Of a stretch of 32,000 nucleotides of DNA, positions 2,453 through 31,419 are shown piece after piece. The translations under genes were made by a program, and so were the position numbers. Source of the stretch: Ktedonobacterales bacterium (GTDB lineage Bacteria > Chloroflexota > Ktedonobacteria > Ktedonobacterales > JADMIN01). Below the pieces are notes generated by a model that ran no database searches, had not been told where the DNA came from, and saw only the letters and a program-made list of their open reading frames with translations. Position 1 is the first letter of the stretch, and every line of letters starts with the position of its first letter. The stretch lies in NCBI GenBank assembly GCA_030167145.1, contig CP126532.1:2730001-2762000 (forward strand). The letters run 5' to 3'.

Positions 2453-4804
2453 ATGAGCGCCGATCCACTCACATTTTTCGGACCGCTCTTGCGCCGCTAC
2501 CGCGAAGCCAGCGGGCTGACGCAAGAAGCGCTGGCCAGCCGCGCCGGGCTGAGCACGCGCGCCATCAGCGATCTGGAACGCGGTGTCAAGCGCACCCCTC
2601 GCCAGGAAACACTGCATTTGCTCCTCGAAGCGCTGGCGCTCTCACCGCACAAGCGCGCACTGCTCACCGCTGCCGCGCGCCCGCTAGCCGCTGTGTCGCT
2701 CGTTCCGCCCCTGGCGGACACACCGCCTCATAATCTACCCACGCCACTCACCCCGCTCATAGGACGCGAGCGCGAGAGCCACGCAGCGGCGGACCTCCTC
2801 AGCCACGCTGAAACGCGCCTGCTCACCCTCACCGGCCCCGGTGGCGCTGGCAAAACGCGCCTCGCCATTCAGGTCGCCACCGATCTGCTCGACCGTTTCG
2901 ACGATGGCGTCTGCTTTGTAGACCTCTCATCTTTGCGCGATTCGGCGATGGTGATGCCCGCACTGGCCCAGGCGCTGGCTCTGCGCGAAGACCCCACCGC
3001 GCCGCTGGCCAGTCGCCTGCGCTCTGCCCTGCGCGAACAACAGAAACTGCTGTTGCTGGATAACTTCGAGCATGTGACCGAATCCGCGCCCGACATCGTC
3101 GCGCTGCTGGCGGATTGCCCACGTGTCAATGCGCTCGTCACCAGCCGCGAGGCGTTGCGCGTGCGCGGCGAGCATCTCATGGCCGTCGCTCCGCTCGCCG
3201 AGGATGCCGCCGCCGAGCTATTCCTGCGCCGTGCTCGCGAGATTGCGCCTGAGCTGCCCGTCACGCCAGAGACATTGCCCATAGTCGCCGCCATCTGCGA
3301 CCGGCTCGATCGGCTGCCCCTGGCGATTGAACTGGCGGCGGCAATGGCGCGCGTGCTCCCGCTTCCTGCCTTGCTGGATCGCCTGACCTCCCGGCTGCCC
3401 CTGCTCACCGCTGGCCCGCGCGATCTGCCGCAGCGCCAGCGCACCATGCGCGATGCTATTGCCTGGAGTGACGATTTGCTCCCCCCCGACGAGCAGCGCC
3501 TTTTTCACTCGCTTGCGATCTTCGCGGGCGGCTGCACCCTCGACGCCGCCGAAAGCATTTTTCGCGCGACTGGCGTCTGCGCCCCCGAAGACACGCTGCC
3601 GGGGCTGCTGATGCTCGTCGAGAAGAGTCTGCTCCGTGTCGAAGTCGAAGCGGCGGATATGCCGCGTTTTAGCATGCTGCAGGTCATTCGTGAATATGCG
3701 CTCGAACGTCTGCGCGCCAGCAGGGGCGCAGGGCACGCACCCGAAGCGGATGAAGCGGCCGAAACCGATACATTGGGCCACCAGCACGCTGAATACTATG
3801 CGACGCTTGCGCAAGATGCGCTTATCATGGGCGCCGGCCAGGACATCCGCGACCAGCGCGCTATGGCGGAACTGGATAACATTCGCGCCGCGCTGGCCTG
3901 GGCGCGCGACCATAACGAGGCTGAGCTTGGGCTGCGGCTGATCGCCATCGCGCGTCTCTGGTACATGCGCGGTCTGCTCAGCGAAGGGCAATTCTGGCTG
4001 CGCGAGTTGCTCGCGCTGGATGCTCGCGCGGGCGACCGTGCCGCGCCACCGGCCCACCGCGCCATGGCGCTCTATGGCGCGACCCGCTTCGCCATGGACC
4101 GGCACGACTACACTGAAGCCGAAGCGCTCGCCAGCGAAGGGCTGGCGCTTGCGCGACGTGTGGGGGATGACGAGGCGATGAGCAACATGCTCGCCACGCT
4201 GGGGCATGTTGCCGAGGCGCACGGCGAGCTGGACCGCGCCGCCACGCTCTTCGCGGAAAGCCTCACCTACGCCGAGCGATCTGGCAACACCGGCGCGCTC
4301 AGTCGTGCGCTTAGCAGCCTGGGCAATTACGCACGGGCGCGCGGTGACCTGGATCGCGCCACCACCTATATGGAGCGGGCGCTAGCCTGCGCGCGGTCCA
4401 TCGGCATGTCCTGGGGCATCGCCTATCAACTAACGGGCCTGGGTCATCTCGCCTGCGAGCGCAACGACTATGCCCGCGCCAAAGACCTCTACCGCGAAAG
4501 CCTGGGCCTCTACCGCACCCTGCATAACCGGGCCACTGTCGCCTGGTGTCTCGAAGGTGTTGCCGTGGTCGCCGCCGCCGAAGAGCAACACGAGCGCGTG
4601 GCGCGACTGTCTGGCGCCATAGCCGCGCTCAGCGCCGGTGCGCCCGACGACCATACCACATCCCCCGCGTGGGCGCTCTACGAACACGCGCCACAACGTG
4701 CCCGCGCCGCGCTGGGCGGTGGTGCCTTTGCGGCGGCTGAGGCGGCGGGCCGCGCCCTCTCGCTGGACGCCGCCATCACCTACGCCCTGGCTGGCCTCGC
4801 CTGA
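2453..4804 (+). CDS. HTH (XRE-type) - NB-ARC/AAA ATPase - TPR signal-transduction (STAND) regulator
   Basis: ATG at 2453. N-terminal XRE-like HTH (LRRYREASGLTQEALASRAGLSTRAISDLERG). Walker A LTGPGGAGKTRLA and Walker B LLLLDNFE. The C-terminal third consists of repeated TPR-like units (LGxxAxxxGDLDRAxxxxERAL...). The first 64 codons of track ORF 2261..4804 are discounted. Confidence 0.85.
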   Translation: MSADPLTFFGPLLRRYREASGLTQEALASRAGLSTRAISDLERGVKRTPRQETLHLLLEALALSPHKRALLTAAARPLAAVSLVPPLADTPPHNLPTPLTPLIGRERESHAAADLLSHAETRLLTLTGPGGAGKTRLAIQVATDLLDRFDDGVCFVDLSSLRDSAMVMPALAQALALREDPTAPLASRLRSALREQQKLLLLDNFEHVTESAPDIVALLADCPRVNALVTSREALRVRGEHLMAVAPLAEDAAAELFLRRAREIAPELPVTPETLPIVAAICDRLDRLPLAIELAAAMARVLPLPALLDRLTSRLPLLTAGPRDLPQRQRTMRDAIAWSDDLLPPDEQRLFHSLAIFAGGCTLDAAESIFRATGVCAPEDTLPGLLMLVEKSLLRVEVEAADMPRFSMLQVIREYALERLRASRGAGHAPEADEAAETDTLGHQHAEYYATLAQDALIMGAGQDIRDQRAMAELDNIRAALAWARDHNEAELGLRLIAIARLWYMRGLLSEGQFWLRELLALDARAGDRAAPPAHRAMALYGATRFAMDRHDYTEAEALASEGLALARRVGDDEAMSNMLATLGHVAEAHGELDRAATLFAESLTYAERSGNTGALSRALSSLGNYARARGDLDRATTYMERALACARSIGMSWGIAYQLTGLGHLACERNDYARAKDLYRESLGLYRTLHNRATVAWCLEGVAVVAAAEEQHERVARLSGAIAALSAGAPDDHTTSPAWALYEHAPQRARAALGGGAFAAAEAAGRALSLDAAITYALAGLA

Positions 4805-4832: not shown

Positions 4833-5690
4833 ATGCTCGTCTGTCCGCTCTGTGAACTGCCGCTCGCGCAGGCTGACCATGCGTTGCGCTGCGAGCGTGG
4901 CCACAGCTTCGACCTGGCTCGCGAGGGCTACGTCAATCTGCTGCCGCCGACCCGCACCGGCGAGACCGGCGACACCAGGGAGATGCTGCGCGCACGCCGC
5001 GCTTTCCTGGCGCGCGGCTGCTACGCCCCCCTCGCGGACGCGCTGAATGCCCTTGCGCTGGCGCACCTCGCCACCTATGTCGCTGCCGCGCCTATCAGTC
5101 CGCACACCATCCTCGACGCGGGTTGTGGTGAGGGCTACTATATCGGGCGACTGTATGATGCGCTCGCCACTGGCTTGCCCGTTGCCGCGCAGCCCCACTG
5201 CTATGGCCTGGATGTTGCCAGGGACGCGGCGCGCCTCGCCGCCAAACGCTATCCTGGTGTCCGCTTTGTCGTCGCCAACACCCATACGCGGCTGCCCTTC
5301 GCCACCGCCAGCCTTGCCGTCCTGCTCAACATCTTCGCCCCGCGCAATCCCACCGAGTTTGCCCGCATTCTCGCGCCCGGTGGCTTGCTGCTGATCGCCA
5401 TCCCCGGTCCCGCCCATCTGGCCGAACTGCGTGCCGCGCTGCCGCTGCTGGGCATCGAGAACAACAAACGCGAGCACATCGCCGCGCAATTCACGGACGC
5501 CTTCACCGCGCTCGCGCCCCATCCGCTGACCTACCCGATGACGCTTGATGCCCCTGCCATCCACGACCTGCTAGCGATGACCCCCAGCGCCCGCCATCTC
5601 CCAGCCGACGCCTGGGCATCTCTTGCCGTGCTAGCACACAAGGAGGTGACGGCAAGCTTCCAGATACTACCTTTCACACGCCGAGACTGA
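4833..5690 (+). CDS. rlmA: 23S rRNA (guanine745-N1)-methyltransferase RlmA
   Basis: N-terminal Zn-finger-like CPLCELPL...CERGHSFDLAREGYVNLLP and REMLRARRAFLARGCYAPL. SAM motif LDAGCGEGYY. Collinear with recalled E. coli RlmA (MSFSCPLCHQPL...HQFDMAKEGYVNLLP...DIGCGEGYY...TPGPRHLMELK). Confidence 0.9.
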   Translation: MLVCPLCELPLAQADHALRCERGHSFDLAREGYVNLLPPTRTGETGDTREMLRARRAFLARGCYAPLADALNALALAHLATYVAAAPISPHTILDAGCGEGYYIGRLYDALATGLPVAAQPHCYGLDVARDAARLAAKRYPGVRFVVANTHTRLPFATASLAVLLNIFAPRNPTEFARILAPGGLLLIAIPGPAHLAELRAALPLLGIENNKREHIAAQFTDAFTALAPHPLTYPMTLDAPAIHDLLAMTPSARHLPADAWASLAVLAHKEVTASFQILPFTRRD

Positions 5691-11155: not shown

Positions 11156-13411
11156 TTACTTTACAGGCGCGAGGGTGACGGGGATGGCGTTGAGAATGGC
11201 GTTGCCGGAGAGCGGGTCTACCGCGTCATCGGGGATCAGCCGGTTGATGCTGACGCCCGCGTGTTCGGCGGCGATGCGCATCTGGCTGCCGGGCACGCCA
11301 TGGCCCCAGCCGTGGGGCAGGCTGACGACGCCGGGCATCATCTCATCGGTGATATGGACAGGCGCGGCGACGCTGCCAGCAGCCGAGGTGACACGGGCGG
11401 CGACGCCTTCGGCCAGATTCAGCCGTGCGGCGTCTTGCGGGTGGACCAGCAGCACGCAGGGGTCATCGCCCTTCACCAGCACGTGCAGGTTGTGCATCCA
11501 AGAGTTGTTCGAGCGCAGGTCGCGCCGACCAATGAGCACGACCGGCGGGCGGGGGTGATCCAGCGCGGCGCGGAGCCGCTCTACGTCGGCGACGATCAGC
11601 GGTGGGGCTAGCTCGACCTTGCCGGATGGGGTGCGCAGCACTTCGGGGATGCGCGGCTGGAGCGGGCCAAGGTCTATGCCGTGGGGCGCGGCCTCAAGCT
11701 GGGCCAGTGTCAGTCCGTCAGGCCGCGCGCCGAAGGCATCGCCATAGGGTCCGGTGCGCAGCAGGAAGTCGAGCAGGCGTTCGGGGCCACGGCGCGGCTG
11801 GAGCGCGGCGAGCAGTTCCGCGCTGTCGCGGCCCTCCACCGGCGAGCCAGCGGTGCGGACCTCGCGCTGGACGAGTTGGGACGCGACCATATCATCTATG
11901 ACGGCGGCGGGGATGGTGGCGTCCTGACCGGCGGCGATGGCGGTCAGCCGCAGCAGTATCTCCCACTCATCAAGCTGGCCTGACTCGCGCGGGAAGACTG
12001 GCGGCGAATAGTGAGCGATGTTGCGGATGGAGAGCTGATAGAAGGCGAGGTCGTAGTGGGCGCGTTGCAGGGGCGAGGGTGGTGGCAGGATGACATCGGC
12101 GTGGCGGGTGGTCTCGTTGAGGTAGCAATCTACGCTGACCATGAAATCGAGCTGGCCGAGCGCGGCATTCAGCCGGTCGCCGTTGGGCGCGCTGAGCGCG
12201 GGATTGCCGGCGATGGTGATGAGGGCGCGCACCTGACCATCGCCGGGGGTGGTGATTTCTTCGGCGAGGCAGACGGTGGGCAGCTCGCCGTAGATCTGCG
12301 GCAGGCCGCGCACACGGCTCTTCTTGAAGCCGGGGCGAATGCCCTTGCCCGTGCCGGGGAGGCCGCTGGTGTTGCGTGCGCCCGCCGCCGCCCTGGGGAA
12401 GAGCGCGCCGCCGGGGCGGTCGAGGTTGCCGGTGAGGGCGTTGAGCACATCGCCAAGCCAACTGGTGAGCGTGCCGAACTGCTGGGTGCATGCGCCGATG
12501 CGCGTGTAGACGGCGGCGCGGGGCGCGGTGGCTAGCTCGCGGGCGATGCGGCGCGTGACGTCGGGGGTGATGCCACAGGTGGCGGCGACGGCCTCTGGGG
12601 TGAAGGGTGCGGCGAGGGCGCGGAGTTCTTCGATGCCGTTGAGATGTTCGGTAAGATGCGCGGGATTGACGAGACCCTCGGCAAAGAGGGTGTGGACGAG
12701 GGCAAAGAGGAAGTGCGGGTCTGTGCCGGGGTGGATGAAGAGATGCTCGCTGGCTTCGGCGGCGGTGCGTGTGCGGCGGGGGTCCACGACGACGACGCGG
12801 CCCCCACGCGCGAGCAATGCGCGGATGCGCCCACGCATGTCGGGCGCGGTCATCAGGCTGCCATTGGAGACGAGCGGGTTCGCACCGAGAATGAGCAGGT
12901 AGTCGGCGCGGTCTACGTCGGGGATGGGGATGCTGAGCATCGTGCCGAACATGTAGCCAGCGGAGACCTGTTTGGGCATCTGGTCGAGGGTGCTGGCGGT
13001 GTAGATGTTGCGGGTGCCAAGGGCGCGGAGCAGCGGGGTGTTGTAGAGCTGGCCGGAGAGGTTGTGGACGTTGGGGTTGCCGAGGTAGACGGCGACGGCG
13101 TCGCGTCCGTATTGTTGCTGGATGGGGGTGAGACGGCGGGCGATTTCGGCGAAGGCGTCATCCCAGGAGACGGCGCGCCACTGGCCGCCCTGGCGCAGCA
13201 TGGGGCCGCGCAGGCGGTCGGGGTCGGCGTCGAGTTCTTTGAGGCTGTAGGCTTTGGGGCAGATGTAGCCGTGGCTGAAGACATCTGCGGGGTCGCCACG
13301 AATGCCGGTGATCTGGCGGCCAGTGGTGGTGATTTCGAGGCCACAGGTGGCTTCGCAGAGTGGGCAGGTGGCGTAGGTGACCTGGGATGGCTCAGGCGTC
13401 GAAGGCGTCAT
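11156..13411 (-). CDS. molybdopterin-dependent oxidoreductase (bis-MGD / MopB superfamily), substrate unknown
   Basis: N-terminal 4Fe-4S Mo/W-bis-MGD-type cysteine cluster (CPLCEATCGLEI...GYICPKA). Length 751 aa. The C-terminal half and GMMPGVVSLPHGWGH tail resemble the molybdopterin dinucleotide-binding region. Intact, with no in-frame stop. Confidence 0.9.
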   Translation of the reverse strand: MTPSTPEPSQVTYATCPLCEATCGLEITTTGRQITGIRGDPADVFSHGYICPKAYSLKELDADPDRLRGPMLRQGGQWRAVSWDDAFAEIARRLTPIQQQYGRDAVAVYLGNPNVHNLSGQLYNTPLLRALGTRNIYTASTLDQMPKQVSAGYMFGTMLSIPIPDVDRADYLLILGANPLVSNGSLMTAPDMRGRIRALLARGGRVVVVDPRRTRTAAEASEHLFIHPGTDPHFLFALVHTLFAEGLVNPAHLTEHLNGIEELRALAAPFTPEAVAATCGITPDVTRRIARELATAPRAAVYTRIGACTQQFGTLTSWLGDVLNALTGNLDRPGGALFPRAAAGARNTSGLPGTGKGIRPGFKKSRVRGLPQIYGELPTVCLAEEITTPGDGQVRALITIAGNPALSAPNGDRLNAALGQLDFMVSVDCYLNETTRHADVILPPPSPLQRAHYDLAFYQLSIRNIAHYSPPVFPRESGQLDEWEILLRLTAIAAGQDATIPAAVIDDMVASQLVQREVRTAGSPVEGRDSAELLAALQPRRGPERLLDFLLRTGPYGDAFGARPDGLTLAQLEAAPHGIDLGPLQPRIPEVLRTPSGKVELAPPLIVADVERLRAALDHPRPPVVLIGRRDLRSNNSWMHNLHVLVKGDDPCVLLVHPQDAARLNLAEGVAARVTSAAGSVAAPVHITDEMMPGVVSLPHGWGHGVPGSQMRIAAEHAGVSINRLIPDDAVDPLSGNAILNAIPVTLAPVK

Positions 13412-23048: not shown

Positions 23049-23342
23049 GGCAGCACTGTGGTCGCGACTGCGATACCGCTGTCTGTCGCCGCCCGGATGG
23101 TGTTGGTGTGGAAAGTGGAACGATGACAACATCCCTTCAACGCTATGTGGCGGGCACAAAGTGATGTGGGCAGAGCCGCTCGTTCTGGTGGGAGCCATGA
23201 CCGCTTTCTGCTAGAATTGAGGAGGTTTCCGCCGCATCATGGGCCATATTATGCGCTGCTAGACATATCCAACTTTAGTGGATGCCGGTTGTGTGATACT
23301 GATGGGCACGGGTACTAGCCCATGCACGAGAGGATCCGCAGC

Positions 23343-24041
23343 ATGAACGAGGATGACCTGGATGGTATCGAAGAACGAGACTGGACCGTGCGGGCGTTGG
23401 TCTATACGTTCATTGCGCAACACGAACGCCCGCCAACCGTGGGTGAGGCTGCGGCGGCGCTTAACGTGACGCATGATCGCGTGGCGCTTGCCTTCCAACG
23501 CCTCAATCGCCGTCATGCTGTCTTCCTGGAGCCAGGCGCCCAGACGATTCGCATGGCGCACCCCTTCTCCGCTATCCCTACGTCCTTCTGGGTGCGGGCG
23601 AATGGCCACAGCTATTGGGCGAACTGCGCCTGGGATATGCTAGGCATTCCGGCCGCCCTGCACACGGACGCCGAGATCGAGGCGCGCGTGGCTGATACGC
23701 AGCATACCGGCGTCACGTTGGACGTCATCCAGAACCGTGTCCATGGGCATGGCGAGGTGGTCCACTTCCCGCTGCCATTTCATCAGTGGTACGACGATCT
23801 CGTCTTCACCTGAGCGACTATACTGCTCTTCCGGTCGGAAGATGAGGTGGATGCCTGGTGCGAGCGCATGGCGCGGCCACGTGGCGAGGTGTTGTCCCTG
23901 GATCAGACCTGGGAGCTGGCACAGCAGTGGTATCACGACCGCATGCGGCCGGACTTTCACGGGCGATCCGCCGAGCAGGCGCAACAGATATTTCAGCAGG
24001 TGGGCTTGCATTCGCCTGCGTGGTCGCTACACCCTGACTAA
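23343..24041 (+). CDS. alkylmercury lyase (MerB) family protein interrupted by one in-frame TGA (23811-23813): candidate selenocysteine codon or nonsense mutation
   Basis: Track ORFs 23322..23813 and 23847..24041 share a frame, and TGA is the only stop between them. YWANCAWDMLGIPAAL matches the MerB C96-x-x-D99 region. VFT-TGA-ATILLFRSEDEVDAW aligns without gaps to recalled MerB SFCCHVHFFASVPTAEDW, placing TGA on Cys159. ATG at 23343 is 8 nt after GAGAGGA. Confidence 0.7.
23827..23842 (+). other. SECIS-like hairpin (6-bp stem, GGUC loop) downstream of the in-frame TGA
   Basis: TCTTCC (23827-23832) pairs with GGAAGA (23837-23842), with loop GGTC at 23833-23836. The loop starts 19 nt after the TGA. 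Confidence 0.4.
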
Positions 24042-25218: not shown

Positions 25219-25399
25219 CGCGCGCCTCCCGCTTCCGCATGCCGTGACAACATCACGTAGTGTAGTCGCTGCTGGCGGGCGCGTCAAATTACCCCACCCA
25301 TGCTCCCAGTACGGTGGGGCATGTGCTACACTGGCGGGGACGGACAGCAATGTGGCGCGGCCAGATAGGGGAGTGGCAGATTCGGAGGAGGCGCCTATT

Positions 25400-25912
25400 A
25401 TGCCGGTATCGCTTGCCAATTCGCAGCGCATCTATGACGCGCTGAAAGCGTGTGATGTGAAGATCATCTCGGCGCTGCCCGAAACGTGGCTGGTGCATTT
25501 GATTCGCATGGCGGATGATGACCCGGAGATGACGCTGGTGCGTATCGCCAAGGAGGAAGAGGCCATCGGCATCTCGGCGGGGGCGCATCTGGCGGGGGTG
25601 CAGTCGGCGTGTTTGATGCAGAACCACGGGTTTCTGGCGGCGATCAACCCTATCGTGTCGCTGGCGCTGCTCTATAAGATTCCGCTGCTGATGCTGATTA
25701 GCTATCGCGGGCATATGGGCGAGAAGGATCCATGGCAGACGATGGGCGGGCTGACCACCGAGCCGCTGCTGCGGGCGTTGAACATTCCCATCTGGCATCT
25801 GGCCAATCCCGACGATGTTGCGCGGCGGCTCAAGGATGCGCAGACGTTGGCCAATGCGGCGTTGCATCCGGTGGCGGTGCTGTTGGCTCGCGAGCTGATG
25901 TGGGAGGATTGA
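25400..25912 (+). CDS. comD: sulfopyruvate/phosphonopyruvate decarboxylase family, alpha (ComD-like) subunit
   Basis: ATG at 25400 after GGAGGAGG. The sequence KEEEAIGISAGAHLAGVQSACLMQNHGFLAAINPIVSLALLYKIPLLMLISYRG is the TPP-enzyme N-terminal (PYR) domain pattern of ComD. Confidence 0.75.
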   Translation: MPVSLANSQRIYDALKACDVKIISALPETWLVHLIRMADDDPEMTLVRIAKEEEAIGISAGAHLAGVQSACLMQNHGFLAAINPIVSLALLYKIPLLMLISYRGHMGEKDPWQTMGGLTTEPLLRALNIPIWHLANPDDVARRLKDAQTLANAALHPVAVLLARELMWED

Positions 25913-25914
25913 CT

Positions 25915-26487
25915 ATGCTGCGCGCCGATGCCTTAGAGGCTATCTACCCGGACATCGCTGAGCATGTTGTGGTGACGATCATGGGCGCGGTCGCTGCTGA
26001 ACTCTATACGTTGGGCCACCGGCACAATTTCTTCTATTTGGAGCATGCGATGGGGCTGGCCTCTTCGATGGGGTTGGGGATCGCGCTGGCGCTGCCGGAG
26101 CGCAAGGTGGTGGTGGTTGATGGCGATGGCTCGCTGCTGATGAATCTGGGCACACTGAGCACGATGGCGCGTTACAAGCCAGGGAATCTGCTGCATGTGG
26201 TGTTCGATAATGAGAGCCTGCTCTCGGTCGGCGGGTTCCCCACGGCGACGGCCACCGGAGCGGATCTGGCGGGGGTCGCACGCGCCTGCGGCGTTCCGCG
26301 CGTCGTTGAGGCGGATACGCCGGATGCGCTGGCGGTCAGTGTGCGCGGCGCGCTGGCCAGCGATACATTGACCACCATCGTCAGCAAGGTGGAGGCGGTC
26401 GGGCCGAAGTCGTTCCACATGGATTTGCCGCTGCTGGAGAACCGATTTCAATTCAAGCGCGCGCTGGAACAGATGCGGGCGGGATAG
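25915..26487 (+). CDS. comE: sulfopyruvate/phosphonopyruvate decarboxylase family, beta (ComE-like) subunit
   Basis: ATG at 25915, 2 nt after the comD-like stop and preceded by GGGAGGA. TPP-binding motif GDGSLLMNLGTLSTMARYKPGNLLHVVFDNES. Confidence 0.75.
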   Translation: MLRADALEAIYPDIAEHVVVTIMGAVAAELYTLGHRHNFFYLEHAMGLASSMGLGIALALPERKVVVVDGDGSLLMNLGTLSTMARYKPGNLLHVVFDNESLLSVGGFPTATATGADLAGVARACGVPRVVEADTPDALAVSVRGALASDTLTTIVSKVEAVGPKSFHMDLPLLENRFQFKRALEQMRAG

Positions 26488-30060: not shown

Positions 30061-31388
30061 TGTATAGACCGGAGACATCCTTTACAGGTGTTCGGGGACA
30101 TAGTTGACAACAGAGCGCTGTTTAGAAACAGGATACACGCCGTGCGAACGGGTGTCCAGGGAGGCGATCCAGTGGTCGGCAAAGTAGACGGCCAGCATCC
30201 CATCCACATCGGTGGGGGCCAAGGCGATGGGCTGGCCGACAAAAGCGCCGCCGACATGGTAGGCCTGCCCCTGCCAACTGATCCAGCCCTCCTGCTGGAC
30301 TTTGCGCACGGTCGCGGAGGCGGCGTACTCTACGGGCGGCAACGTCTCGGGGAAGGGGCGCGGACTGGGCGTATAGTGGCGGGCCGGCACGGTGAGACCC
30401 AGTGCTTCATGGGGCCGCTCCGTGTTATAGACCTGACGCCAGGTGTCGAAGACGGCTTGGGCGTGTGTCAGGTCGTGCAGCGGCTGGGCGAGGGCTTCGG
30501 CGCGCAGGGTGCGGTGGAAGCGCTCGTCCTTGCCCTGGGTTTGGGGATGACGGGGACGGCCATGCCGCACCGTGACGCCCAGGCGCACCAGCCAGACACT
30601 CAGGCGGGTCCAGGGCGTGGGTCCGCCCGCACTCCCCCAGGGCGCGCCGTGGTCACACAGGATACGGCGGGGCAGGCCATAGGTGCGAAAGAGCGTGGTC
30701 AAGGCGGCTTGCACGGTCGCGTGCTGCTCATTGGCGCAGGCCAACACGCCCACGGCAAAGCGCGAATGGTCGTCGAGCACCGTCAAGGGATGACACCGCT
30801 GGCCGCCGCCGGGGTGGGCCGTCAAGGGCAGATGCCCCTGAAAATCCATTTGCCACAGTTCATTGGGAGCGGCATAGGTAAAGCGCTGGGGCGGCGGACG
30901 GCGGTGCGGGGCGCGGTCCGCTGGGGCCAGCAAGCCGTGCCGCTGCAAGATCGCGGTGATCGTGCTGGCGGCGGGGACGGGCTGGTCGGGCGCCAGCACC
31001 TGCAACCGCGCCCGCAGTTTCCGTCCGCCCCAGGCGGGATGCTGGGCGCGCAACGCCAGCACGCGCTGCTCCAGGGCGGCGGCGGTGCGGGTGGGACTGG
31101 TCGTCGGGCGGCGCGACCGCTCAGCCAGTCCCGCGCTCCCCGCCTGCTGAGCGCGGGCCACCCACTTGTAGCCCGTGGGACGACTGATCCCGAACTGGGC
31201 GCACAGCGCGCTCAGGTTGACGTCAGGCTGCGACGCCTGCGCCACAAAGGCCAAACGAAGGGACATGGCTGATGACTCCTGCCACGGCATGGGCAACCTC
31301 CAAACAGTGTTCCTGACTCGCGGAATAGCACTGCTTGGATGTAAACCATGTCTCCGAACGTGTGTAAACCATGTCCCCGGTCTATACA
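30061..31388 (-). mobile_element. IS481-family insertion sequence (1328 bp), apparently intact
   Basis: Ends TGTATAGACCGGAGACAT (30061-) and ATGTCCCCGGTCTATACA (-31388) form inverted repeats that extend about 50 bp with a few mismatches and contain repeated GACATnGTTTACA motifs. There is a single DDE transposase ORF and 6-bp direct repeats CCCTAC. TGT...ACA termini are typical of IS481. Confidence 0.85.
30082..31290 (-). CDS. IS481-family transposase (HTH plus rve/DDE integrase core)
   Basis: Start MPWQESSAMSLRLAFV at 31290 (the MPW... start is recalled as common in this family). HTH FGISRPTGYKWVAR. DDE residues in WQMDFQG, LCDHGAPW and HPQTQGKDERFHRTL. The track ORF start at 31416 lies outside the IS and is discounted. 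Confidence 0.9.
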   Translation of the reverse strand: MPWQESSAMSLRLAFVAQASQPDVNLSALCAQFGISRPTGYKWVARAQQAGSAGLAERSRRPTTSPTRTAAALEQRVLALRAQHPAWGGRKLRARLQVLAPDQPVPAASTITAILQRHGLLAPADRAPHRRPPPQRFTYAAPNELWQMDFQGHLPLTAHPGGGQRCHPLTVLDDHSRFAVGVLACANEQHATVQAALTTLFRTYGLPRRILCDHGAPWGSAGGPTPWTRLSVWLVRLGVTVRHGRPRHPQTQGKDERFHRTLRAEALAQPLHDLTHAQAVFDTWRQVYNTERPHEALGLTVPARHYTPSPRPFPETLPPVEYAASATVRKVQQEGWISWQGQAYHVGGAFVGQPIALAPTDVDGMLAVYFADHWIASLDTRSHGVYPVSKQRSVVNYVPEHL

Positions 31389-31394
31389 CCCTAC
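31389..31394. repeat. right target-site duplication CCCTAC
   Basis: See 30055-30060. Confidence 0.7.
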
Positions 31395-31419
31395 AAGGGG
31401 AGGGGGAGGATGTCACCGC

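Follow-up and report, generated by a model that had tools for sequence, protein, structure and literature searches.

Does the TGA codon that interrupts a MerB-family gene end a short protein, or is it read as selenocysteine (Sec) within a longer one? We examined this question in a 32,000-nucleotide stretch of DNA from a Ktedonobacterales bacterium (assembly GCA_030167145.1, contig CP126532.1, positions 2,730,001 to 2,762,000), here called the window, in which the gene lies at 23343-24041. The original prediction held that the TGA is the only break in one frame and proposed that the gene encodes a selenoprotein. The first claim was borne out: in the frame 23322..24041 (+), the sole internal stop is TGA 23811-23813, the terminator is TAA 24039-24041, and read-through from ATG 23343 gives a MerB-family product of 232 residues. 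The second is supported by conservation of the UGA, by the pairing of Cys and Sec at one site among relatives, by constraint on an RNA hairpin, and by selection on the C-terminal tail. Judged from sequence, 23343-24041 is very probably one selenoprotein gene of the MerB superfamily.

ATG 23322 is an alternative start upstream of ATG 23343. The latter is the likely start codon, because it has GAGG 9 nt upstream and matches the start of the annotated protein P0001 ("hypothetical protein OJF49_002649"; 156 amino acids [aa]) of a Ktedonobacterales metagenome-assembled genome (MAG). P0001 corresponds to 23343..23810; the database protein is therefore truncated at the TGA.

Conservation of the in-frame TGA among relatives

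DNA was fetched for 80 metagenome loci and for 80 loci of named species-representative genomes, one of which has TGC at the site; the best species-representative match listed is 69% identical. At the aligned site, 166 related genes were read as DNA. TGA was found in 161 of them (the window, the 80 metagenome loci, 79 genome loci, and L081), TGC or TGT in five (L082, L083, L084, L086, and L126), and TAA or TAG never. The frame after the TGA is open in every TGA form, for 64 to 93 codons (median, 74), and the true terminators of these genes are TAA (72), TGA (53), and TAG (34). The internal TGA is always kept while the real terminator drifts, and it therefore bears the signature of recoding.

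The same boundary is visible in protein databases. Some 110 of the 120 top-ranking database homologues (54 to 71% identity) are 143 to 217 aa long and cover 60 to 67% of the query, and all short homologues in the alignment end on one Thr directly before the UGA position. The residue preceding Sec is an invariant Thr. Six full-length homologues cross the site, five with Cys and one with Trp, and the Cys relatives read T-C-A-T there; the homologues with Cys at the UGA site are P0003, P0004, P0027, P0050, P0052, and L126. The Trp homologue, P0002 (L081:43-732), has TGA in its DNA. The Joint Genome Institute (JGI) call renders this codon as Trp and yields a spurious full-length 'W' protein, evidently through a call under an alternative genetic code. 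Hundreds of family genes are recorded as "organomercurial lyase" or "hypothetical" fragments of ~150 to 190 residues, records in which one catalytic residue is missing together with one-third of the protein.

The original prediction had named as its alternative a recent nonsense mutation from TGC or TGT to TGA, which would make the window gene an inactivated, Cys-type MerB-like pseudogene. TGA is indeed one step from either codon, and Cys-form relatives exist. However, the TGA is common to 161 genes at ~45 to 70% identity from several Chloroflexota classes, the tail behind it is intact and under purifying selection in the window copy as well, and it is accompanied by a hairpin with frozen synonymous sites. 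Conservation of the TGA, selection on the tail, and constraint on the hairpin exclude a recent nonsense mutation, and the probability that we assign to a pseudogene is virtually nil.

The hairpin downstream of the TGA

In the window, a stem formed by 23827-23832 and 23837-23842 encloses a GGUC loop at 23833-23836. Both the position and the loop are as first predicted, but the distance of 19 nt given then for the stem is in fact the spacing between the UGA and the loop, and only 13 nt separate the UGA from the start of the stem. As a control for chance, we searched behind every TGA triplet of the window, 838 on the two strands together, for a stem of at least 6 bp with an NGUN tetraloop, 15 to 23 nt after the TGA. 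Only one triplet, that at 23811, has a matching hairpin.

Pairing and covariation were evaluated in an alignment of 80 sequences, consisting of metagenome loci and the window. In this gapless stack, columns +15 to +31 are near-invariant at all three codon positions, and RNAalifold predicts the stem from the alignment. In the 6-bp helix, 98.5% of cells pair, compared to 48 to 70% when the 3' partner is slid by 1 to 3 columns. Compensatory changes from C:G to U:A occur in eight sequences (TTC...GAA to TTT...AAA), each at the cost of a Glu-to-Lys substitution, and a change from U:A to C:G occurs in one; 11 sequences have U:G wobbles. Moreover, synonymous codons within the hairpin are frozen: Leu at +5 is CTC in 62 of 62 cases, Arg at +7 is CGG in 55 of 55, and Ser at +8 is TCG in 78 of 79. 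Codon entropy at these three positions is 0 to 0.1 bit, whereas most of the remaining Leu, Arg, and Ser codons of the gene range from 1.3 to 2.4 bits (one Arg codon, at 0.83 bit, is the exception). Likewise, the proportion of synonymous differences (pS) is 0.32 in the hairpin codons and 0.74 to 0.75 elsewhere.

Across the 161 TGA forms, the stem has six of six pairs in 147 genes and five of six in 14. The loop always begins 19 nt after the UGA and reads GGUC in 112 genes, AGUC in 46, and otherwise in 3; its G and U are invariant in the gapless stack (80 of 80) and kept in 159 of the 161. As a separate observation, locus L029 (3439-3504) has a disrupted stem (TCG AGA for TCG GAA), and the conserved Cys of its tail is replaced by Ser (W-S-K for W-C-K); this may be a decaying copy or reflect sequencing errors. 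In the Cys forms L082, L083, L084, and L086, the LLFR(S/T)(D/E) peptide is kept via other codons (CGC, TCT, TCC, and ACC), only two to four of the six pairs remain, and GCUC or GCAC stands at the loop position; the Cys form L126 has four of six pairs and an AGAC loop. Thus, TGA and a conserved hairpin go together in 161 genes, and the five relatives with TGC or TGT have no hairpin. The predicted hairpin withstands folding of the alignment, counts of covarying pairs, and analysis of synonymous sites, and these patterns indicate that it is an RNA-level element tied to the UGA.

The selenocysteine insertion sequence (SECIS) of Escherichia coli fdhF, for which the original prediction had given a GGUC loop about 18 nt after the UGA, is a close point of comparison. 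The authentic fdhF sequence, in which codon 140 is the UGA and the GGUC loop follows after 18 nt, confirmed this geometry. Both elements are short hairpins within coding sequence, and the distance to the GGUC loop is 18 nt in fdhF and 19 nt here. On the other hand, the stem sequences are unrelated, no equivalent of the bulged U of fdhF was identified in the hairpin described here, ~29% of the MerB-like family members have an AGUC loop, and SelB binding is putative in this family.

Selection on the C-terminal tail

The ratio of nonsynonymous to synonymous differences per site (pN/pS) was compared on the two sides of the TGA. Family-wide, where synonymous sites are saturated, it amounts to 0.31 over the 20 codons that precede the UGA and to 0.43 over the 45 that follow. 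Between the window and its six closest relatives, pN/pS downstream of the TGA is 0.20 to 0.33 at 67 to 78% amino acid identity, and downstream constraint in the window is no worse than upstream constraint. These data place the tail under purifying selection, both family-wide and in the window copy, and argue that it is functional.

A second explanation is that the TGA is a real terminator of a 156-residue protein, the tail being made by reinitiation or from its own start, and the hairpin serving coupling or mRNA stability. Gene callers do annotate the short form, and codon +3 after the TGA is Met (ATG) in 102 of 158 genes. However, this codon is Ile in 56 genes, including the window gene, in which the earliest in-frame start after the TGA is a GTG at codon +12. 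No conserved restart was found in the 158 genes, and a Shine-Dalgarno-like motif precedes the first in-frame start in just eight of them. A plain stop would drift among TAA, TAG, and TGA, yet the codon is TGA in 161 of 161 genes. Furthermore, a split at this point would divide the active site within the MerB core, at the catalytic Cys of the relatives, and the Cys forms are single open reading frames (ORFs). Real termination at 23811 is, in our judgment, exceedingly improbable.

MerB fold and active site

The Pfam MerB profile (PF03243; gathering score, 27 bits) matched the read-through product, written with C at the stop, with 92.2 bits over profile positions 1 to 125 of 126, crossing the TGA. 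The N-terminal part alone scored 50.3 bits and the tail alone 25.1 bits, and profile positions 87 to 125 fall in the C-terminal part. MerB chains in the PDB read RRLYAWCALDTLIFPALI and SFC[C/S]HVHFFASVPTAEDW; by these chains and the profile alignments, the MerB strings used in the original prediction, and the gapless alignment built on them, are correct. We aligned a profile of 25 full-length family members to MerB of plasmid R831b. The family-invariant N-C-A-W-D aligns with W-Cys96-A-L-Asp99, and the family motif T-[U/C]-A-T aligns with F-Cys159-(C/S160)-H. In the window protein, C102 and D105 (counted from 23322; C95 and D98 from 23343) stand on Cys96 and Asp99. The TGA stands on Cys159, where it had first been placed, and the equivalent Cys of MerB2 (PDB 5C17) gave the same result. 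This position is UGA (Sec) in 161 genes and Cys in 5.

As a proxy for the window protein, a structure model was made for P0003, a natural Cys-form relative that is 51% identical. The AlphaFold model had a predicted local distance difference test score (pLDDT) of 89.5 and a predicted template modeling score (pTM) of 0.85. In a Foldseek search of the PDB, its top 11 matches were all MerB or MerB2 at 17 to 18% identity, with template modeling scores of 0.55 to 0.67, except for 0.44 with the nuclear magnetic resonance model 1s6l. The modeled relative thus matches the MerB fold, and the window protein is predicted to share it. Another Cys, at codon +16 after the TGA (23859-23861, ...DAWCER...), is kept in 58 of 80 sequences and is replaced by Leu in one subclade (MNMLFF...EWL); its role as a partner thiol for the selenol is speculative.

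Sec machinery and the remaining alternatives

The evidence on Sec machinery covers the window and 1.5 Mb of orthologue flanks and, within the source genome, the window only. Here and elsewhere, several results weigh against a selenoprotein with MerB-like chemistry. The window contains no tRNA, Rfam match, or sel gene according to Rfam, ARAGORN, and the window gene annotation, and tblastn with E. coli SelA, SelB, and SelD revealed no sel gene in the window and the 1.5 Mb of flanks. The single-sequence folding energy of the hairpin is unremarkable (z = -0.94), and alignment folding with RNAalifold found no conserved lower stem. No metal-related clue emerged from the gene context, either in the window or in the ten largest neighbor clusters from 160 loci. 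Finally, the proposed chemistry relies on homology to MerB at 17 to 18% identity, and the very strong Hg-Se bond might hinder product release.

Two GTPase matches were considered as SelB and rejected, since Pfam identified them as IF-2 (L090) and LepA (L160). ARAGORN detected a single tRNA-Sec in these 1.5 Mb of flanks, at L075:257-351 (-) with anticodon TCA, and Rfam confirmed it with 67.5 bits (RF01852; gathering score, 47). It lies 170 nt upstream of a TGA-form orthologue (519-1157, +), in divergent orientation, on a metagenome contig of 1160 nt. Thus, the tRNA and the gene co-occur on one DNA molecule, for one carrier only. No locus other than L075 has a tRNA-Sec beside the gene, the far side of the L075 tRNA is occupied by an unrelated ORF, and further Rfam scans of the closest relatives and L075-like loci gave only signal recognition particle (SRP) RNA and rRNA. 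In the literature, tRNA-Sec has been documented in Chloroflexi (PMC5389517) and selenoprotein-rich Dehalococcoidia are present in BSepDB; nothing specific to Ktedonobacteria was found on Sec use.

A third explanation involves no Sec: a suppressor tRNA, a near-cognate tRNA, or a reassigned code would place a standard amino acid, for instance Trp or Cys, at the UGA. The JGI call of P0002 gives Trp at the codon, and Sec machinery was not seen in the window of the source genome. Nevertheless, the original prediction was right that TGA is an ordinary stop elsewhere in the window: it ends 3 of the 17 Pfam-supported window genes, those with stops at 4802-4804 and 5688-5690 among them, and also 53 of 159 orthologues. 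Because TGA terminates these genes, the genetic code is standard. Standard read-through also needs no position-fixed hairpin with an invariant, fdhF-like loop GU; the hairpin is lost exactly where the codon is TGC or TGT, and a tRNA-Sec adjoins one orthologue (L075). Insertion of a standard amino acid is accordingly a very improbable outcome.

Fourth, the family could comprise true selenoproteins while the source genome has lost Sec decoding, leaving the window copy as a non-functional relic. Within the source genome, the sel-gene evidence is confined to the window, and bacteria have commonly lost the Sec trait in the course of evolution (PMC1794560). However, the window copy retains the UGA, a stem with six of six pairs, an open tail, and the GGUC loop; downstream of the TGA, its pN/pS of 0.20 to 0.33 is as low as that upstream; and decay or conversion to Cys would be expected in a relic. 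We see a slim chance of such a relic, and a decoded selenoprotein remains the favored reading for the window gene.

Comparison with SaoL and MerB

A MerB-like selenoprotein, SaoL, has been described, in which Sec aligns with MerB Cys159 (Haft & Gwadz 2022 bioRxiv 10.1101/2022.07.06.499078, J Bacteriol 2023). According to Haft & Gwadz 2022, its database entries were truncated at a C-U dipeptide, it lies within a nine-gene SAO locus that includes the ABC transporter SaoB/P/X, SaoC, and SaoE, and it is carried exclusively by anaerobic Firmicutes, deltaproteobacteria, and spirochaetes. SaoL and the Chloroflexota family share the PF03243 superfamily, Sec at the Cys159 site, the equivalents of Cys96 and Asp99, and rare Cys variants. 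Nonetheless, the window protein scored 33.6 bits with the SaoL model NF040728, whose cutoff is 140, and 0 of 25 family members passed (best E-value, 8e-17). The motif is T-U-A here and C-U in SaoL, and the Chloroflexota family has a longer C-terminal tail. The Chloroflexota gene has no nine-gene SAO neighborhood; no SAO gene was found in the window or in the ten largest neighbor clusters annotated from the 160 loci. The carriers are Chloroflexota of soil, sludge, and groundwater instead of anaerobic Firmicutes, deltaproteobacteria, and spirochaetes. Because of the score, the T-U motif, the lack of an SAO neighborhood, and the different taxa, the Chloroflexota family is not SaoL.

With MerB itself (plasmid R831b, PDB 3F0O/3F0P; Bacillus megaterium MerB2, PDB 5C17), the family shares the fold, the catalytic Cys and Asp, and the position of the third ligand. 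It differs in its identity of 17 to 18%, in Sec for Cys159, and in having no equivalent of the adjacent Cys160. All 25 family members tested matched the MerB equivalog models weakly, and the window protein failed both, with 44.8 bits against 193 and 31.6 against 200 (NF009710 / NF033555). Moreover, no merA, merR, merT, or merP lies near the gene in the window, and the gene sits on the chromosome and seems to have been passed down vertically within one phylum instead of being borne on plasmids or transposons.

SaoL is the only MerB-type selenoprotein in reviews from 2022 and 2026. We found no other in deep-Sep, BSepDB, or the 2026 review, a search that did not cover Haft & Tolstoy 2025. NCBI names the family members "organomercurial lyase" at truncated length; the family is thus not recognized as selenoproteins, and it is seemingly uncatalogued as such. 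The description "novel selenoprotein" in the original prediction therefore stands in part: the clade is distinct from SaoL, but the kind was already known, SaoL having been published in 2022. This second, apparently independent clade with Sec at the Cys159 ligand strengthens the idea of adaptive use of Sec in organometallic chemistry, and would extend the range of such chemistry from strict anaerobes to Chloroflexota of soil, sludge, and groundwater.

Distribution and evolution

We confirmed at least 581 stretches of the family in species-representative genomes and at least 567 in metagenome contigs. Carriers include Ktedonobacteria, Thermomicrobiales, Nitrolancea, Herpetosiphon, Roseiflexaceae, and many Anaerolineae (Anaerolineales, Villigracilis, Ardenticatenaceae, Caldilineaceae, and Aggregatilineales), and their habitats are soil, sludge, and groundwater. 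Two TGA forms with perfect hairpins come from bins with other labels, NC10 (L116) and Rubrobacter sp. (L117), which could reflect horizontal transfer or mis-binning. In a rough, midpoint-rooted neighbor-joining tree, the six Cys forms fall into two groups of three. Because each group nests among Sec forms in this crude tree, the topology suggests that Sec is ancestral in the family and was converted to Cys twice.

Proposed decoding and chemistry

The UGA at 23811 would be decoded as Sec during translation. By the route usual in bacteria, the mRNA hairpin at 23827-23842 would bind SelB-GTP-Sec-tRNA(Sec), and the hairpin-bound SelB would deliver Sec-tRNA(Sec) to a ribosome with the UGA in its A site; we infer that insertion in the source organism is SelB dependent. 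The product would adopt the MerB fold, with Cys96-Asp99-Cys159 replaced by a Cys-Asp-Sec triad in which the thiolate and the selenolate may bind the metal and the Asp may donate a proton. From homology, the likeliest chemistry, which we propose tentatively, is that a carbon-metal(loid) bond is cleaved by protonolysis. Its natural substrate could be other than an organomercurial, because the gene lies outside a mercury-resistance operon.

More broadly, the family may represent a phylum-wide Chloroflexota lyase with a MerB fold and a Cys-Asp-Sec triad, in which Sec is ancestral and near-fixed (~97% of genes), which arose or was retained independently of SaoL, and which acts outside mercury resistance on another organometal(loid) or housekeeping substrate, in aerobic lineages as well. 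We hold this broader proposal to be possible, with a little less than even confidence. If true, many aerobic soil and sludge bacteria, in which selenoproteins are said to be rare, would have a Sec lyase. The finding would bear on mercury and organometal cycling and on estimates of how widely selenium is used, and in Chloroflexota MAGs the presence of the family could be used to mark the Sec trait.

Features of the gene and its neighborhood

Coordinates of the gene and its parts are collected in Table 1.

Table 1. Predicted features of the MerB-like selenoprotein gene, in window coordinates
Feature	Position	Strand	Remark
Complete selenoprotein gene (predicted)	23343..24041	+	232 codons including UGA (Sec), then TAA stop
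N-terminal part: winged-helix-like domain and first half of MerB core	23343..23810	+	Sole database-annotated part
Cys-Ala-Trp-Asp codons TGC GCC TGG GAT	23625..23636	+	Equivalents of MerB Cys96/Asp99; family-invariant
In-frame TGA, read as Sec (predicted)	23811..23813	+	Residue 157 from ATG 23343; aligns with MerB Cys159
75-codon C-terminal part: remaining MerB core and family-specific tail	23814..24038	+	Tail pattern W..WY..R....GR.....F...GL
Bacterial SECIS (bSECIS)-type hairpin (candidate)	23827..23842	+	Stem UCUUCC/GGAAGA, loop GGUC 23833-23836
True terminator TAA	24039..24041	+	

The neighbors of the gene in the window are an aminotransferase, an S11 DD-carboxypeptidase, and a split thiamine-diphosphate (TPP) enzyme. 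Among the ten largest neighbor clusters, those with a Pfam match are 3-hydroxy-3-methylglutaryl coenzyme A (HMG-CoA) reductase, an HMG-CoA synthase-like protein, thiolase, histidine kinase, DnaA, and a HAD hydrolase; four have no Pfam match. In 40 to 53 Anaerolineae-type loci, the gene is flanked upstream by HMG-CoA reductase on the same strand and downstream by the HMG-CoA synthase-like and thiolase genes, with dnaA nearby (examples: L128:3418-4692, L157:12610-13689, L111:14399-15559, and L122:5073-6422). Either synteny within the lineage or a functional connection with the mevalonate pathway could account for this arrangement. In two Ktedonobacteria-type loci, a 4HBT/DUF4442 thioesterase gene lies directly upstream on the same strand, in a TGA-form Ktedonobacterales MAG (L090:6715-7335) and in a Cys-form contig (L082:376-834), and is not present in the window. 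We rejected gene context as a functional clue: local syntenies are strong, but none is family-wide or shared with the window.

The three closest Ktedonobacteria-type genomes have a bacterial large SRP RNA upstream of the gene, at a distance of 3.5 to 8 kb (L087:6264-6530, L088:2160-2423, and L089:2396-2659 [-]). The window has no such RNA, and these genomes thus do not keep synteny with the source genome.

Other features of the window were also recorded. At 64% G+C, the 17 Pfam-supported window genes end in TAG (8), TAA (6), and TGA (3), so that TGA is the rarest terminator; at such G+C it is usually the dominant one. An uninterrupted molybdopterin oxidoreductase of 751 aa with an N-terminal Fe4S4 domain is encoded at 11156-13411 (-), and an IS481-type transposase (rve integrase core and LZ_Tnp_IS481) at 30082-31416 (-), close to the window end. 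The split TPP enzyme consists of two overlapping ORFs, 25244-25912 and 25732-26487 (+), with N- and C-terminal TPP-binding domains, respectively; the first terminates in TGA, and the two presumably resemble subunits of sulfopyruvate or phosphonopyruvate decarboxylase.

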